NCBI GenBank assembly: GCA_963976765.1
Contig: CAXBME010000010.1
Span: 62,001 to 126,000, forward strand
Length of the DNA stretch: 64,000 bases
Reading direction: 5' to 3'
Source: an uncultured Planctomycetaceae bacterium
GTDB taxonomy: Bacteria > Planctomycetota > Planctomycetia > Planctomycetales > Planctomycetaceae
Shown: one piece after another, positions 21,450-43,510 of the stretch
Layout of the letters: each line of letters opens with the position of its first letter
How positions within the stretch are numbered: the first letter of the stretch is position 1
Translations under genes and position numbers: made by a program
Notes under the pieces: generated by a model
The model's database searches: none
The model's input: the letters and a program-made list of their open reading frames with translations, nothing else
What the model was told of the DNA's origin: nothing

Positions 21450-22589
21450 TCAATTGGTACTGAGTCGACGAACCCGATGTGTCTCGCTGTCGCCGATGTA
21501 GACGTTTCCGTGACGATCAACAAAGACTCCATGCGGGCGAGCCGTTCGGCATTTGAGTGGATCGCCATCGGGGCCATCTCCTCGCTGTCCGTCTCCGACG
21601 AGAATTTCGAGCGTTCCAGTGGCCGCTCGAATAACGCGGATTGAATGGCTTTCGGTGTCTGCAAGAAAGACATCGCCATTTGGACCGATGGCAATTCCCT
21701 TAGGACCGGACAGTGTCGCCAGTTTCGCCGGACCGCCGTTTCCCGTGAAACCTTTCTTGCCAGTGCCGGCGAGGTGGTGCAGCGTCTGACTGCGAAGATC
21801 AATCCGGTAGACCGTGTTTCCTTCACGCAAGGCGAGATACAGGCTGGTCTTCCCATCGAAGTCCAGTGTTCGTGGCCCGTTCAACGGCGTTCCTTTCAAT
21901 GATGCTCCGTCGGGAGTTGGCTTCCGCTCGCCAGTGCCAGCAAACGTTTCGATGAGCCCGGTCTCCAGATTCACGATTCGAACTCGATGATTCCCGATAT
22001 CGCAGATGTAGAGATTGCCCTGATGATCAAGCGCGATCGAGTGCGGACGATTGAGCGTTGCCTTCGTCGCGGGGCCACCATCGCCAGAGAATCCCAACTC
22101 CCCAGTACCGGCAACGGTCGAGATGATTCCCGAATTCGCATCAACACGGCGGACGATGTTGTTTTTCATCTCGACGAAGAACATGTTCCCGGCGGCATCG
22201 AAACGAACTTCATAAGGCTCGTTGAGTTTCGCACCCGTTGCCGGTCCGCCATCGCCGGAGTATCCCTGCTTTCCGGTTCCCGCGACGATGCTGATCTTCC
22301 CGGTGACTTCGTCCAGGCGGCGGACGACGTGAGTGGCAATTTCGCAAATGTAGAGAGCGCCGTCCGGTCCTTTTGAAAGTCCATACGGTTCCCCGACCGG
22401 AGTCTGAGTGGCGATTCGCTCGCCAGGTTCAAGTCCAGACACGCCGGTTCCAGCAATCGTCACGACCTCAGCCGCAGAAGCGATCGTCGTCATCAGACCT
22501 GCCGAAACGACGACCGAAAGAATCCAGATTGGCACGAAATTGTGAGCATCAACGTGACCGTTGCGAAGTCTGGAGATTAGGCACAGCAT
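21450..22589 (-). CDS. Secreted NHL-repeat beta-propeller protein
   Basis: Repeated AGTG..G.SGDGGPAT.A.LN.P units and a signal-like N-terminus. Start uncertain. Confidence 0.88.
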   Translation of the reverse strand: MLCLISRLRNGHVDAHNFVPIWILSVVVSAGLMTTIASAAEVVTIAGTGVSGLEPGERIATQTPVGEPYGLSKGPDGALYICEIATHVVRRLDEVTGKISIVAGTGKQGYSGDGGPATGAKLNEPYEVRFDAAGNMFFVEMKNNIVRRVDANSGIISTVAGTGELGFSGDGGPATKATLNRPHSIALDHQGNLYICDIGNHRVRIVNLETGLIETFAGTGERKPTPDGASLKGTPLNGPRTLDFDGKTSLYLALREGNTVYRIDLRSQTLHHLAGTGKKGFTGNGGPAKLATLSGPKGIAIGPNGDVFLADTESHSIRVIRAATGTLEILVGDGQRGDGPDGDPLKCRTARPHGVFVDRHGNVYIGDSETHRVRRLSTN

Positions 22590-37236: not shown

Positions 37237-38607
37237 CTATCTGGCTGCGGCGTTCTGCTTTGCGAGGCGATGCACCGTCGAGACGATCTGATCTTCCAGG
37301 CCGGCCTTCCACTTTGAAGGCAGCTGGTAGACGATCATCGACGAGTCGCCTTCGTAGCCTCCCTCTTCGAGTACCCGTTCCGACGGGATGTAGGCCATGA
37401 CATCGTTTGCGTAGCCGGTTACCCAGGTTGAGTTCTCTCCGAGTTCGCGTTTCAGTCGGAGCTGGTAATCAACGACCAGTTCTCCCCCCAGCGCCACCCA
37501 GTTAATCTCGTTACCCAGCTGCCAGACCTGGATTGGGTAGGGCCATGATGCTGGCAGCGAGCCATCGCGTTCCCACTCACTGAGCAGCAGCTTCGCTCGT
37601 CCGGCGGTGTAACGACTCGAATTCCTGAGGTCCGCCTGAAGCTGTTCTTTCGTGGGGAGCTGGTGGAACTCCAGTTCGACTTCTTCGAACGACGCTGCCA
37701 GTTCGCCCGTCACTTCATTCATTGGCTCGTCAAGAACCTGGTTCACCGACACGGCGAGCATCCGCCCATACTTCTGCGCGAGTTCGATCTTCCGCCTTGG
37801 CAGAGGATTCTGATCAGCCCCTCCGCCGGTAAAGAACATCGCCACAGAATCAGGATGGCGATCTTCCAGATAAAGCTGAGCGAACCCGGAGTAGTCGCCG
37901 CACCATTCGTAGAAGCCGAGCGTTGTGTTGTGGCAGGCGTAACCAAAGACAACACCTCGCAACGTTGATCCGTCCAGCGATTCAATTTTCAAAACCGGCA
38001 CCTGGTGGTCGTACGGGCCGATGCCTTTCGGCGTTCGACGATTGGCAGCGAATCGGCAAACGCCACTGCCGGTCGAAAGGCGAGCCGGTTTCAGGTCGGC
38101 GATGGCGGCGTCGACCGTTTCGATCACGCGCTGGTTGAGCCAGACCTGATACTCGCGAACCTGCTTCCAGTCGGCCTCTTTCATGTCGAGCATGTAGCTT
38201 AGCCGGTCGTCGAGTGCCGGTCCGCAGTGAGTGTGCGAGCAGGCGATCATCAGGTTGCGTCGAGGCAGGCCGTGCTTCTTCTCAGCGGCGGCAGCAACCG
38301 TTATCGCCATCGTTTTCGGAACGCCGACCAGGTCGGTGGCGACAAAGACAACGGTCTCGCCTTTTGAATCCCGAATCGCAGTCGCGCGAGCGTACAGGTC
38401 GTGCACCTTGCCTTCCGCAGCGTGAGACCGGCCTCCGTAGCCGGACATCCACATAAACTCGGGAGGCGTGATGACAACTCGGGAAACTCCGGCCTGCCAG
38501 GCACCGGCCTTGCTGGAAGGTTCGGTTGCGGCGTCGGCAGCGTGAGCTGTCAAACCATCCGCCAGCGGAATCACAAGCAGCATCACCGTAAGCAGAGCCT
38601 GTCGCAT
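37237..38607 (-). CDS. Secreted neutral/alkaline ceramidase-like hydrolase
   Basis: Signal peptide, MSGY, HDLYARA, SHTHCGP, YACHNT, GADQNP, GYAND..AYIP. Confidence 0.85.
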   Translation of the reverse strand: MRQALLTVMLLVIPLADGLTAHAADAATEPSSKAGAWQAGVSRVVITPPEFMWMSGYGGRSHAAEGKVHDLYARATAIRDSKGETVVFVATDLVGVPKTMAITVAAAAEKKHGLPRRNLMIACSHTHCGPALDDRLSYMLDMKEADWKQVREYQVWLNQRVIETVDAAIADLKPARLSTGSGVCRFAANRRTPKGIGPYDHQVPVLKIESLDGSTLRGVVFGYACHNTTLGFYEWCGDYSGFAQLYLEDRHPDSVAMFFTGGGADQNPLPRRKIELAQKYGRMLAVSVNQVLDEPMNEVTGELAASFEEVELEFHQLPTKEQLQADLRNSSRYTAGRAKLLLSEWERDGSLPASWPYPIQVWQLGNEINWVALGGELVVDYQLRLKRELGENSTWVTGYANDVMAYIPSERVLEEGGYEGDSSMIVYQLPSKWKAGLEDQIVSTVHRLAKQNAAAR

Positions 38608-38799
38608 GTTGAGTTCTCCATTGCAGGGAGGGACACCGTGGCTCAGCATAGCAGTCTGATTAAAAAGTGTGCCACTGGCTCCGCCACCGCTGTCTGGAAT
38701 CGGTTGTTTCAGGGGACTCTGCCCTGGCAGAGCCAGTGGCGCACGCTGAGTGGCCAGCCCACCAGCCAGTTGTTCGTCCCTTGCGAAAGCTCAGCCCGC

Positions 38800-40839
38800 G
38801 TGACCGTTTCTCGAACCGAACTCGTCGCCATCCTGGTGATCACCGTGGCCGGCTTTGCTGCGCGATTTGCTTTCCTGAACGAGCTGGCGATCGAGCATTT
38901 TGACGAAGGCGTCTACGCATCGAACCTCTGGTTTCCCGACGAGGGTTACCAGTACCCCGACCGGTTCCTTTACGCGCCACCGTTGCTGCCGAGTCTGATC
39001 GAATGGTCGATGATCCTCGTCGGCGAGGCACGCTGGGTTCCGTTTCTGCCGTCGCTGATTCTGGGAAGCCTGACCGTTCCACTGGCGTGGTGGTCGGTTC
39101 GCCGCTGGTCTTCCGGCGCGTCCGGAGTTGCCGCCGCAGGGTTGCTCTCGCTCAACGACTTTCACATTTCGATGAGCCGCTCGGCGTTGACGGATGCGCC
39201 CATGGTTTTCTTCCTGCTGCTCGCCGTGTGGCTGGCGGTCGAGGCTCTTGCCGATCGTAACCTGAGACTTTCGGCGATGGCCGGCTTTGTGACAGGGCTG
39301 GCCTGGGCGACCAAATACAACGGCTGGCTGCCCGTTGCCATCGCGGTCAGTGGCAGCGCTGCCGCGTGCATCTTGTGGCCTCGTGCAAAGTCGCCGGACG
39401 AACTCAACGCAGGCAGGCTGTCGATCGGATCAATCATCGCCTGCCTGGCAGTGCTGACTCTGGCGGCGGCGGCTACCTGGTTCCCGGTGTGGTGGGATCT
39501 GCAACCGATCGGTGGCTATGCAAGAGTCGCAGACAACCATCGCAACTACGTCACAGGCTTCGCTGAATGGTGGTCGGCAGCGGTCAGACACGAAGCCGTG
39601 CAACGCCACTACGCAGGGTGGCCAACGTTGCTTTCCGGATGGCTGGCCGTAATCAGTTCGGCGTTGGTATTTCGTGTGGAACGTTCCACGTGGAACGAAA
39701 CATCGCCACACCATGACAGCTCGGATGGTGGCTCGATCCATGCTGCAGAACCAGGCGTGAAACGTTCCACGTGGAACGAGTTCAACTTCATTAAGACGGT
39801 GGCGATGACTGCTGCGCTGGTCGGTGCCGTTGCTCTCAGCCCGGTCGTCGCACTCGGTATCTGGTCGTTGATTGAATTGATTGCGTCGGGCAAGTCAGTA
39901 CGCCGGATTCACCAGCAACGTTTGGAATCCACGTCGAGCAGAACCACTGAGAACCAGCGACCGTCGAAGAGCCGATCGAAAAAAGCGACAGGCAGCGACG
40001 GCGCCTCAACGATCGAACGCGCGCATCGCAGCTGGTTCGGAGTATGGCTGCACCTCGCCTGGCTTTGCGGGCTTACTCTGACGACGCCGCTTTATCGCCC
40101 CTACCCGCGACTCATTCTGCCACTGCTTTGTGTCGGGTGTGTCGGCACCGGACTGGCGATCGTTCGACTGCTGCATGGCCGACTCTTCGCTGGCCGATCG
40201 TCAATGTCGGTTATCGATTCGCAGGACACTTCGCCGAAGAAGAGTGCAACGTCAATCGAGACTGCTGGCGACGTCGACCTGTCGAACGAACGACCTGCAG
40301 GTGCGGGATCAGATCGGCGACCGAATTCTCAAGCAGCCAGGCTGCGGACCATCTGGTTGTCGATTGTCGTCTGCCTTTGCGTCTGGCGAGCGAACGATCA
40401 TCGCGCCCCGGCGTGGCAGAACCGCGCAGGTCTGGCAGACATCGCCGAGCAGGTGGTCGCTGCCGCTGCCGAAAACTGCAAAGGCTCGCAACCAATCAAA
40501 GACGAGTTTGCTTTCGTCATGTACTCCTACGGCGAGCCCGGACTCATGTTCCATATCGCCAGTACGGGAGCCCCGATCTTACCCATCATGGACCTGAGTT
40601 TTGCGAGACCTGGTTCTGACCATGCGCGGATTCCGACGTTCGTACTGGCTGGCCCTCACGCCTGGAAGAGTTCGCAGTTTGGCGACGAATTCAGGGCATT
40701 GCCCGAAGAAGCAATGATCGAGGTGGCCGAGTTTCCCTACCTGGTGAGTGATTTCGTCCTGCTCGATGACCACGCTCCGCGGCAGCTTTCCCGACACCGC
40801 AATGACATCGTGAAGCTTTACCGGGTGCAGTTCCGCTGA
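38800..40839 (+). CDS. GT-C (ArnT/PMT, GT39/83-like) membrane glycosyltransferase
   Basis: EHFDEGVY, YAPPLLP, SRSALTD, GLAWATKYNG and many TM segments. GTG start at 38800 is inferred. Confidence 0.85.
   Translation: MTVSRTELVAILVITVAGFAARFAFLNELAIEHFDEGVYASNLWFPDEGYQYPDRFLYAPPLLPSLIEWSMILVGEARWVPFLPSLILGSLTVPLAWWSVRRWSSGASGVAAAGLLSLNDFHISMSRSALTDAPMVFFLLLAVWLAVEALADRNLRLSAMAGFVTGLAWATKYNGWLPVAIAVSGSAAACILWPRAKSPDELNAGRLSIGSIIACLAVLTLAAAATWFPVWWDLQPIGGYARVADNHRNYVTGFAEWWSAAVRHEAVQRHYAGWPTLLSGWLAVISSALVFRVERSTWNETSPHHDSSDGGSIHAAEPGVKRSTWNEFNFIKTVAMTAALVGAVALSPVVALGIWSLIELIASGKSVRRIHQQRLESTSSRTTENQRPSKSRSKKATGSDGASTIERAHRSWFGVWLHLAWLCGLTLTTPLYRPYPRLILPLLCVGCVGTGLAIVRLLHGRLFAGRSSMSVIDSQDTSPKKSATSIETAGDVDLSNERPAGAGSDRRPNSQAARLRTIWLSIVVCLCVWRANDHRAPAWQNRAGLADIAEQVVAAAAENCKGSQPIKDEFAFVMYSYGEPGLMFHIASTGAPILPIMDLSFARPGSDHARIPTFVLAGPHAWKSSQFGDEFRALPEEAMIEVAEFPYLVSDFVLLDDHAPRQLSRHRNDIVKLYRVQFR
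39682..39697. promoter_or_regulatory. parS: parS-type centromere site 1
   Basis: Perfect 16-bp palindrome CGTTCCACGTGGAACG matching GTT(T/C)CACGTG(A/G)AAC, about 1.7 kb from parB. Confidence 0.85.
39763..39778. promoter_or_regulatory. parS: parS-type centromere site 2
   Basis: Identical 16-mer 81 bp downstream of site 1. Confidence 0.85.
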
Positions 40840-41431: not shown

Positions 41432-42376
41432 ATGGCGCAGGATGGCGCACCAAAACGCCGGCTCGGTCGAGGACTTGACGCATTGCTCGGCGGCAGATCA
41501 CAGGAGGCTCCAGCAGCCGTGCCGGTGGCCGTTGCGCAGCCGGAGCCCGTCACCGAACCGTCATCGCAACCGGCAACCCTTCTGCCTGTCGACCAGATTC
41601 GGCGAAACCCGTTTCAGCCTCGGACCGAATTCGATGAAGAATCGCTGAACGAACTGGCCAGGAGTATCGGACTTCACGGCGTGCTTCAGCCGGTCCTCGT
41701 CCGAAAAACGGAAAAGGGTTACCAGCTGATCGCGGGCGAGCGACGCTGGCTGGCTGCTCAGCGAGCTGGCCTGAAAGAGGTTCCCTGCCGAGTCATGGAT
41801 CTGGCCGATCGCGAAGTCAGCGAAGCGGCGATGGAAGAAAACCTGAAGCGGAAGGATCTCAACGTGCTGGAAAAGGCGCAGGCCTTCCAGGATTACGTCG
41901 ACCGCTTCGCCTGCACGATTGAGGAACTCGGCAAACGACTGTCGATGGACCGCTCGACCGTTTCCAACATGCTCCGGTTGCTCGAACTTCCCGAGCCAGT
42001 GCGGCGACTGCTTCACGAAGAGAAGATCACCGGCGGCCACGCCAAGGCCATGCTGCCTCTGGAAGAAGTCGACCAACTGGCCATCTGCGAGCGGATTCAG
42101 GCCGAGTCGCTTTCCGTCCGTAAGACGGAGCAGGCCGTCCGAGCGATCATGCGGGGCGAAGCGGCGAACACGATCCCGATCGAGTCCGTAAAGACGCCGA
42201 AGCAGCCACCCGAACGGACAACACACGTCGATTCGCTGGAGCAGCAACTCCGCGACACACTCGGTCTGAAAGTCCAGATCAAACTGAAAACCGCCGAATC
42301 CGGCCAGGTCATCATCGACTTCGGCACCAACGCCGACTTCGACCGCATCACCCGCCTGATCCGAAAAGCCGCGTGA
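41432..42376 (+). CDS. parB: Chromosome partitioning protein ParB/Spo0J
   Basis: LGRGLDALL, NPFQPR, LIAGERRW, ENL.R.DL, HTH DRSTVSNMLRLL, GHAKA. Confidence 0.97.
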   Translation: MAQDGAPKRRLGRGLDALLGGRSQEAPAAVPVAVAQPEPVTEPSSQPATLLPVDQIRRNPFQPRTEFDEESLNELARSIGLHGVLQPVLVRKTEKGYQLIAGERRWLAAQRAGLKEVPCRVMDLADREVSEAAMEENLKRKDLNVLEKAQAFQDYVDRFACTIEELGKRLSMDRSTVSNMLRLLELPEPVRRLLHEEKITGGHAKAMLPLEEVDQLAICERIQAESLSVRKTEQAVRAIMRGEAANTIPIESVKTPKQPPERTTHVDSLEQQLRDTLGLKVQIKLKTAESGQVIIDFGTNADFDRITRLIRKAA

Positions 42377-42427: not shown

Positions 42428-42471
42428 AAAAAGCCAGCCGGGAATTGATCCCGGCTGGCTTTGTCTTTTTT
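42428..42471. terminator. Bidirectional intrinsic terminator
   Basis: AAAAAGCCAGCCGGGA-ATTGA-TCCCGGCTGGCTTTGTCTTTTT between convergent genes. Confidence 0.85.
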
Positions 42472-42491: not shown

Positions 42492-43007
42492 TTAGTTGTC
42501 GTAGTCAACGACGACCCAACCGTTCTTGACGCGAATTTCGACACGGTATTTGCCGTAGTCATATTTCGTGTAAGCGCCGTTGTTCTTGCAGGTAACCTTC
42601 GGGCCGTGATCTTTCTCGCAGCCACAGGCTGGTTTCGGAGCACAGCAGCTTGGCTTTGGTGCACAGCAGGTGTGACAAGGCTGCTTCTTAGGAACACAAA
42701 TCTTCACGTAGACGCAGCGAGGCTGCTGGCAGCAGGCACATGGATCCGGCTTCCAGCACGGATCGAGAACCTTGACGATCTTGACTTCGGCGCACGGAGC
42801 GATGTGGTCGAGATCTTCGTACTTCACGCACTCAAACAATTCAATCGCTTTGCCTTCAGCAACTGGCTCAGGAGCTTTGTCACCTTCGTGGTGATCGAAG
42901 CTTCCGACAAAAGTGCTCGGAAACAAAGGGCTGAAATCTGCTGCTGAAGCAACATTGGCTGCCGCGACGACGGCAACCGCACAAAACACACTAGCAAGCT
43001 TTCTCAT
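42492..43007 (-). CDS. Secreted Cys-rich hypothetical protein
   Basis: Signal peptide MRKLASV...ASA, AGGAGA RBS, 16 Cys in the mature part. Confidence 0.8.
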   Translation of the reverse strand: MRKLASVFCAVAVVAAANVASAADFSPLFPSTFVGSFDHHEGDKAPEPVAEGKAIELFECVKYEDLDHIAPCAEVKIVKVLDPCWKPDPCACCQQPRCVYVKICVPKKQPCHTCCAPKPSCCAPKPACGCEKDHGPKVTCKNNGAYTKYDYGKYRVEIRVKNGWVVVDYDN

Positions 43008-43510
43008 GGCAATCTCTCCTGATGGCTGCCGCCCGATTGTTATTTCGGGCACGAAACAGAAACTGAAACTCATCAACCGCAGGGCATCCGAGCCCCCCGG
43101 CTCGCCCTGCGTTTTAAACATACAACATAAGATCAAATGCGAAAGGTGTCGCCGAGATGATCTTCAAGGTTTTCAGGGCACTCTGTGTCAGCTGTACCGA
43201 GTACGAATAATGGGTAAGACCTGGAGCAGCAAGGAAACGGCCTGTGTTTATTCAGTTATTATTGTAGATCGCTCAAACTTCCTGCCTGGCCCACTCGTCA
43301 CCTTCCAGAAACGACAGCTCAAAGCACGTATTGCGCCAAAAGAAGACGCCAATTTGGCAGTCTCTCTATTAGGCGAGCTCATACTGCGTGCCGAGCGCAA
43401 ATATGACAGTGCCTAAATGGCAGCAACACCTATAATGCGACAGGTCGCCTTTGACATTAGTTGTTTATCAGAAATCATTAACGATTAATTTACGGATCCC
43501 TTTTATTGAT

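Follow-up and report, generated by a model that had tools for sequence, protein, structure and literature searches.

The window, a 64,000-nucleotide stretch of contig C10 from the genome of an uncultured Planctomycetaceae bacterium (G000), contains a gene predicted to encode a membrane glycosyltransferase of the GT-C fold (PMT_2/ArnT/STT3-like; 38800..40839, forward strand, about 679 amino acids). Its start probably lies near the GTG at 38800 rather than at 38401, where the open ORF 38401-40839 begins, because in two relatives the open frame extends no more than 33 and 72 nt upstream of the first codon with homology and because an ORF from 38401 would overlap the divergent gene. Within this host gene, the 16-bp sequence CGTTCCACGTGGAACG occurs twice, at 39682..39697 (site 1) and 39763..39778 (site 2). 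Both copies are perfect palindromes, matched on both strands alike, with 14-bp cores at 39683-39696 and 39764-39777; they start 81 bp apart, share one frame of the ORF, and each yields the peptide RSTWNE. The spacer between the sites (39698..39756, forward strand) is variable and encodes loop residues 300-322 of the structure model. Directly upstream of each site lies an extra right half-site on the forward strand, GTGGAAC at 39676..39682 (codons GTG GAA C, V-E-R) and GTGAAAC at 39757..39763 (codons GTG AAA C, V-K-R), whose last C is the first base of the following 16-mer. Moreover, GTGGAACGTTCCAC at 39676-39689 forms a second perfect palindrome that overlaps site 1. The palindromes and half-sites had been described from the letters alone in a first-pass annotation, and our sequence check reproduced their coordinates, frame and spacing.

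The same annotation had placed parB about 1.7 kb downstream; the gene (41432..42376, forward strand) starts 1,654 bp past the second site. A terminator-like hairpin of 14 pairs, identified by consensus match only, lies between parB and a convergent gene (42430..42462, no strand). On the reverse strand at 42492-43136, convergent with parB, we noted a cysteine-rich ORF of 214 amino acids that has no Pfam match. A promoter scan returned one weak site before parB against 0.5 expected, and Rfam gave no match within the window. There is no parA beside parB at this locus; the best ParA candidate is encoded on contig C5 (AAA_31 match, E value of 4.5e-56).

A scan of the whole assembly found only two perfect matches to GTTYCACGTGRAAC in 8,570,753 bases, namely the two palindromes, compared to 0.10 expected by chance under a 5th-order Markov model and none for the reversed pattern. 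Seven one-mismatch sites are scattered elsewhere in the assembly, while the reversed control gave three. The two arm-swapped arrangements GTGRAACGTTYCAC are likewise the sole ones in the genome. The outermost base pair of the 16-mer is C-G here and T-A in the consensus given in the excerpted part of PMC7383237. A one-mismatch site at window positions 21738-21751, 18 kb upstream, was considered as a third parS and rejected, as none of seven congeners has a match with at most one mismatch at the orthologous place.

The host ORF matched Pfam PMT_2 with an E value of 5.5e-13 and also matched PMT and STT3; NCBIfam gave no match for the protein at an E value of 1e-15. A structure model based on 43 aligned orthologs reached a mean pLDDT of 86.6, and Foldseek retrieved STT3, ArnT, AglB and Pmt4 with E values of about 1e-5 to 1e-6. 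The first loop carries a conserved HFDE motif, in which H33 and D35 are invariant and E36 is nearly so, and the protein thereby combines the two features of the GT-C superfamily, a multi-pass fold and an acidic motif in the first external loop. The family matches and the modelled fold together identify the host as a GT-C membrane glycosyltransferase. With characterized GT-C enzymes (ArnT 5EZM/5F15, STT3/AglB/PglB, Pmt4) it shares the fold and the PMT_2 match, but identity is just 8-21%. Residues 300-322 have a pLDDT below 50 in the model and are probably disordered. Site 1 specifies R295-N299, where helix 274-301 ends, and the residues R322-N326 specified by site 2 immediately precede helix 327-345, so the two sites mark both ends of the loop. 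This loop is likely cytoplasmic according to the positive-inside rule, applied from a basic loop two helices later.

We found the host gene in 34 of 41 genomes searched and in seven of the eight within the genus; the remaining genus genome is 59% complete. In the seven gene-bearing genus genomes, all 18 perfect sites fall in this loop, with two or three in-frame copies each. Among the best 80 of 362 relatives, the named loci included parB in 64 cases, a perfect site in 52 and a perfect site inside the coding sequence in 17; the reversed control over the same 80 loci gave no sites.

The position of parS relative to the replication terminus was assessed with the octamer GGGCAGGG, which we take to be the FtsK-orienting KOPS motif and which is strand-skewed 184 to 41 in the window's genome. 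The terminus was defined as the point at which the octamer converges, among the matches listed in four of five complete relatives and with rounded genome sizes. By the matches listed, it lies at 2.87 Mb in G008, 1.64 Mb in G012, 0.06 Mb in G019, 3.58 Mb in G029 and 2.60 Mb in G037. The distance from the perfect parS to the point opposite the terminus is about 0.24 Mb in G008, 0.29 Mb in G012 and 0.17 Mb in G029, at most 0.44 Mb in G037, and about 0.02 Mb in G019, where octamer polarity seems to switch near 3.4 Mb and the distance is perhaps up to 0.5 Mb. In all five, parS is thus within about 8% of the chromosome length of the anti-terminus point, as judged from the octamer matches listed. Both dnaA copies of G012 and of G019 lie 1.2-1.7 Mb from that point, and dnaA is therefore a poor origin marker in these planctomycetes. 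In G019, parB is 2.2 Mb from parS; in G029, parB (G029:C1:3494299-3495201) sits about 80 kb from the octamer-defined terminus, with parS and the host gene about 4 Mb off on the origin side. Hence, parS marks the origin side in the complete relatives even where dnaA (G012, G019) or parB (G019, G029) is far off.

For the window's own genome, an attempt to place oriC gave no position: contig C10 has a flat GC skew without a clear flip and mixed octamer polarity (seven forward, eight reverse), and on no contig do three DnaA boxes cluster within 600 bp. Neither of the two dnaA copies is on C10. The cumulative GC skew reaches its maximum near 65 kb of contig C12, where the octamers also converge in polarity; this point is likely the replication terminus.

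Lineages outside the genus carry sites at other positions of this gene, and all three reading frames are represented. G009 (L020) has eight parS copies reading VPRET, VSRET or VSRGT in a different frame within a long stretch of an 882-amino-acid open frame, which is an independent in-gene array; G032 has two in-gene sites reading VPRET. G029 and G034 carry an in-gene site that reads FHVE between conserved residues, and in G010 (L018) the site at position 1551 overlaps the codons leading into the HYDEG motif (SFHVEHYDEG). In five of 16 out-of-family genomes, the sites remain with the host gene and parB lies on a different contig or at a large distance; in six of the 16, parS lies by parB and the host gene is unmatched by this query or weakly matched elsewhere. 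Several genomes deviate from these patterns. G011 (L154-L159; 88% complete) has 42 perfect parS sites over about 22 contigs, with no parB match at an E value of 1e-45 and no host-gene match, and six of its sites that we inspected extend to a T...A 16-mer. G033 has 24 perfect sites dispersed over about 20 contigs and does possess parB. G015, G030 and G035 gave no perfect parS match, though parB is present, and possibly use a variant site; the single contig of G015 has a single site with one mismatch, some 80 kb away from parB.

Taken together, these data make it very likely that the locus is an ordinary parABS centromere which overlaps the gene for a GT-C glycosyltransferase. We consider it probable, from the sequence comparisons, that the palindromes are the ParB loading sites of the chromosome and that the glycosyltransferase is their tolerant host and not a partner in segregation. 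That they represent a centromere, as proposed at the outset, is very likely given the sole perfect sites of the assembly, an adjacent parB with parS-type residues and the position of parS opposite the terminus in the complete relatives.

A further proposal of the first-pass annotation was that ParB could couple this envelope gene to segregation. In such a scenario, the sites would be parS but the gene would also be a functional partner, either because ParB tunes its transcription or because co-translational membrane insertion tethers the centromere. Several observations are consistent with this: throughout the class parS lies within or next to the gene, in three frames; in the complete genome of G029, three sites and the gene are found together opposite the terminus, and parB is about 80 kb from the terminus; and in P. 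aeruginosa ParB represses promoters beside parS3 and parS4 (excerpt of PMC5961200). The sites that stay with the gene but away from parB in five of 16 out-of-family genomes even go beyond what a purely passive host predicts. However, the loop is free of sites in 74 of 108 aligned orthologs, and 63 of the 80 named loci from the best 80 of 362 have no perfect site in coding sequence. In G037, parS is at 4.91 Mb while the homologue of the gene (E value of 5e-15), at 2.03 Mb, carries no site; in G012, parS and the gene are 330 kb apart, and the six out-of-family genomes mentioned above have parS by parB with the gene unmatched or weakly matched elsewhere. Furthermore, in the consulted part of PMC4010829, only two to three of 20 genes under ParB spreading were silenced in V. 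cholerae. Because of the many site-free loci and the distance of parS from the gene in G037, ParB-envelope coupling lacks direct support. No result supports a functional connection of the enzyme with segregation, and we regard a partner role of the gene as unlikely.

The reading as ParB loading sites also depends on the protein that would bind them. The adjacent parB product, to which profile matches assign ParB_N, HTH and dimerisation domains, is the top ParB_N match among six in the genome, and its GERRWLA motif (GxxRxxA) aligns with that of solved ParBs. R174 and G202 occupy the positions of Q and R in Noc; their equivalents R173 and G201 are specificity-determining positions in the available part of PMC7383237. 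Together with N179, both residues are invariant in all 73 distinct ParB HTH sequences. An identity as a Noc-NBS system was rejected, as the sites match parS and not the NBS consensus presented in that portion of PMC7383237, and the protein has R, M, E and G vs QKKR. Five more positions that contact parS according to the same partial source differ here (I163, S171, M172, D173 and K205, located by counting from R174), and these differences are common to the planctomycete sample and not genus-specific. Apart from this locus, contig C27 has a higher GC content of 59.6%, a V-shaped skew and two ParB_N proteins, and C23:9663-10882 encodes an adjacent pair of ParA-like and ParB-like proteins; both may be mobile elements or secondary partition systems.

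The extra half-site is a peculiarity of the genus. Of the 32 genus-level copies, 28 directly follow a perfect GTGRAAC, and 31 follow one with at most one mismatch. At position -4, G occurs in 14 copies and A in 18, with no other letter, which are both letters that parS permits at this place despite the resulting exchange of Glu and Lys; the genus consensus is extended and asymmetric (GTGRAAC-core-GA). We rejected the half-site as a general planctomycete feature, since outside the genus none of 143 perfect sites has a perfect flanking half-site and seven have one with a single mismatch. Nor did the 73 distinct ParB HTH sequences reveal a genus-specific helix-turn-helix that would explain it. 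Selection on the half-site is likely, based on few independent events in the sequences compared, and the half-site would probably serve as an auxiliary ParB contact, the weakest step of our explanation.

This asymmetry, the five further ParB_N-domain proteins in the genome and the five differing contact positions of the adjacent ParB might also be explained if the palindromes served not as a segregation centromere but as an operator for a different DNA-binding protein, such as a transcription factor or a second ParB-like protein. The sites, however, match the canonical parS core exactly; 64 of the named loci (best 80 of 362) also contain parB, the ParB differences are shared by the planctomycete sample, and by the octamer matches listed parS lies opposite the terminus in five of five complete relatives. 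We thus consider such an operator very unlikely.

We further asked at which level the sites are conserved. In nine genomes (seven of the genus, two of sister genera), all 22 copies share the core codons, with a pairwise divergence of 24-64% at 4-fold sites of the host gene. For the genus-level codon test, metagenome loci were added and duplicates removed, leaving 120 distinct of 141 loci. The core is identical in all 32 copies from 12 distinct genus-level sequences, which are kin, so that the copies are non-independent events; elsewhere in the gene, 13 of 193 4/6-fold and 13 of 67 2-fold columns of invariant residues are frozen. The 120 orthologs contain 76 RSTWN-like peptide matches, of which 61 have a perfect core, ten one mismatch and two two mismatches, and the remaining three are unrelated peptides with six to eight mismatches to the core. 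In the same-frame in-gene sites, GTGGAAC is used in 60 of 60 cases, compared to sites outside the gene, of which 57 of 99 use GTGAAAC. The latter variant is avoided because it would read TGA in this frame. Site spacings in 21 multi-copy loci are all multiples of three (42-114 bp). The avoidance of the stop variant and these spacings therefore argue that both codes are maintained. The initial view of the sites as dual-coded DNA thus holds: synonymous positions are frozen and the stop-creating variant is shut out of the frame.

According to the first-pass annotation, orthologs that keep RSTWN with codons breaking the palindrome would refute its reading. There are six such cases, all in outlying lineages and none within the genus. 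One is an ACG-to-ACT change in a second copy, in a locus whose first copy is perfect; the other five are AAC-to-AAT changes, and each of these loci has a perfect site 19 bp past the stop codon. The terminal-T form is also found between genes in other lineages; it could be either a variant that is tolerated or a site that has relaxed. Two more cases are xxTWN peptides with two core mismatches. In view of these cases, the first RSTWN copy may be under some protein-level selection. A stronger view would be that the palindrome is incidental and that selection acts on the peptide itself, either as a repeated motif of the protein or as a cap that ends the helix with an interfacial tryptophan; the six cases and the location of both copies at helix ends in the model are in its favour. 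This view is largely refuted by the codon test and is highly improbable to us, given the codons frozen in 32 of 32 genus copies, the perfect core in 61 of 73 parS-like peptide matches, the non-synonymous one-base variants RSTGN, RSPWN and ISTWN, the presence of the same DNA between genes and in other frames, and the lack of the peptide in most orthologs. The RSTWN peptide thus appears to be mostly a by-product of a constraint on the DNA.

Copy number and spacing point to a dynamic history of the sites. A fixed or helically phased spacing was rejected on the basis of observed distances of 42, 45, 66, 69, 78, 81, 90 and 114 bp. Recent duplication of whole spacers found no support either, as spacers A and B are 37-55% identical within a genome and shuffles give 45 ± 5%. 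In a quick tree of 38 rows, the two-copy rows of the window's genome and of G005 fall at separate places within the three-copy rows, as would be expected if one unit had been lost twice independently. The loop span was determined for 108 anchorable orthologs of the 120, with short or gapped rows dropped, and has a median of 28, 38, 52 and 79 residues for zero (n = 74), one (13), two (13) and three (8) sites. Two parS-free loops lengthen in parallel, one from 28 to 60 residues and the other from 39 to 81.5, and long loops are therefore a lineage trait. The suggestion that the loop may exist to carry the centromere thus stands in part: the loop starts and ends at the sites and grows with their copy number, but two parS-free loops grew equally. 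The loop is, moreover, a helix-to-helix connector that exists in site-free orthologs too.

Overall, being the sole perfect parS matches of the assembly and conserved as DNA inside a translated gene, the palindromes are likely ParB loading sites. By analogy with general parABS biology, ParB-CTP would bind the cores, clamp and spread over several kilobases, and ParB would segregate the origin region with ParA, encoded elsewhere, and perhaps SMC. As to the history, the ancestral locus may have had the host gene beside parB. New parS sites would be tolerated only near existing ones, leading to their repeated origin in this gene where the protein allowed it. One parS would have arisen at the helix end and then multiplied in whole-codon steps, and the window's genome would have lost one of three units.

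In Bacillus subtilis, parS lies inside spo0J. That site is dual-coded at the par locus, as here, but its host is parB itself and it is present in a single copy, in contrast to the tandem copies in a neighbouring membrane-enzyme gene. In the part of PMC4368675 consulted, nine of ten Pseudomonas aeruginosa parS were predicted to lie in coding sequence, and synonymous changes were used to inactivate them; moreover, P. aeruginosa ParB also binds single GTTCCAC arms (PMC5961200, in excerpt). As far as these excerpts extend, parS1-10 have the same core consensus as the sites described here but are spread over many genes, while here all perfect sites are in one protein loop and show in-frame copy-number variation and a directly abutting conserved half-site. 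In Corynebacterium glutamicum, parS1 lies within trpCF and belongs to an origin-proximal cluster (PMC7083940, partial text); one of ten sites is intragenic there, compared to two of two here and 18 of 18 in the genus. In the accessible section of PMC5815017, Caulobacter crescentus tolerates extra parS only near the native cluster, which would account for repeated gain in the gene next to parB. Its sites are clustered near the origin according to the same section, whereas the cluster here is squeezed into about 100 bp of coding sequence, and, unlike in C. crescentus, parA does not adjoin parB. That parS can lie inside genes is therefore established from the available parts of the Pseudomonas and Corynebacterium reports; the concentration in a single loop, the in-frame change in copy number and the conserved extra half-site are new. 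A literature search found no mapped chromosomal parS of a planctomycete, although a 2007 survey (Livny et al.) outside this search may list some. The portion of the Planctopirus essential-gene study (PMC10632474) covered holds nothing on parS, and the portion of a plasmidome preprint (10.1101/2024.01.22.576637) covered has no occurrence of the term.

On a more speculative note, the planctomycete centromere might be kept in or beside this gene for a function, be it membrane anchoring via expression or ParB-timed envelope glycosylation, with the 1.5-site unit loading a third ParB. We think this improbable; if true, it would amount to a gene-encoded centromere tether, and to our knowledge no origin anchor has been described in this phylum. 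The surprise is limited, since the principle of intragenic parS is already known. Nevertheless, the locus provides a concrete candidate centromere for a phylum in which chromosome segregation has barely been described. As the perfect sites all fall within about 100 bp of a single gene, recoding this segment synonymously would abolish the whole candidate centromere without altering the protein. Across the relatives, the loop also documents clearly how such sites are acquired, amplified and lost in nature while the DNA must still encode a protein.
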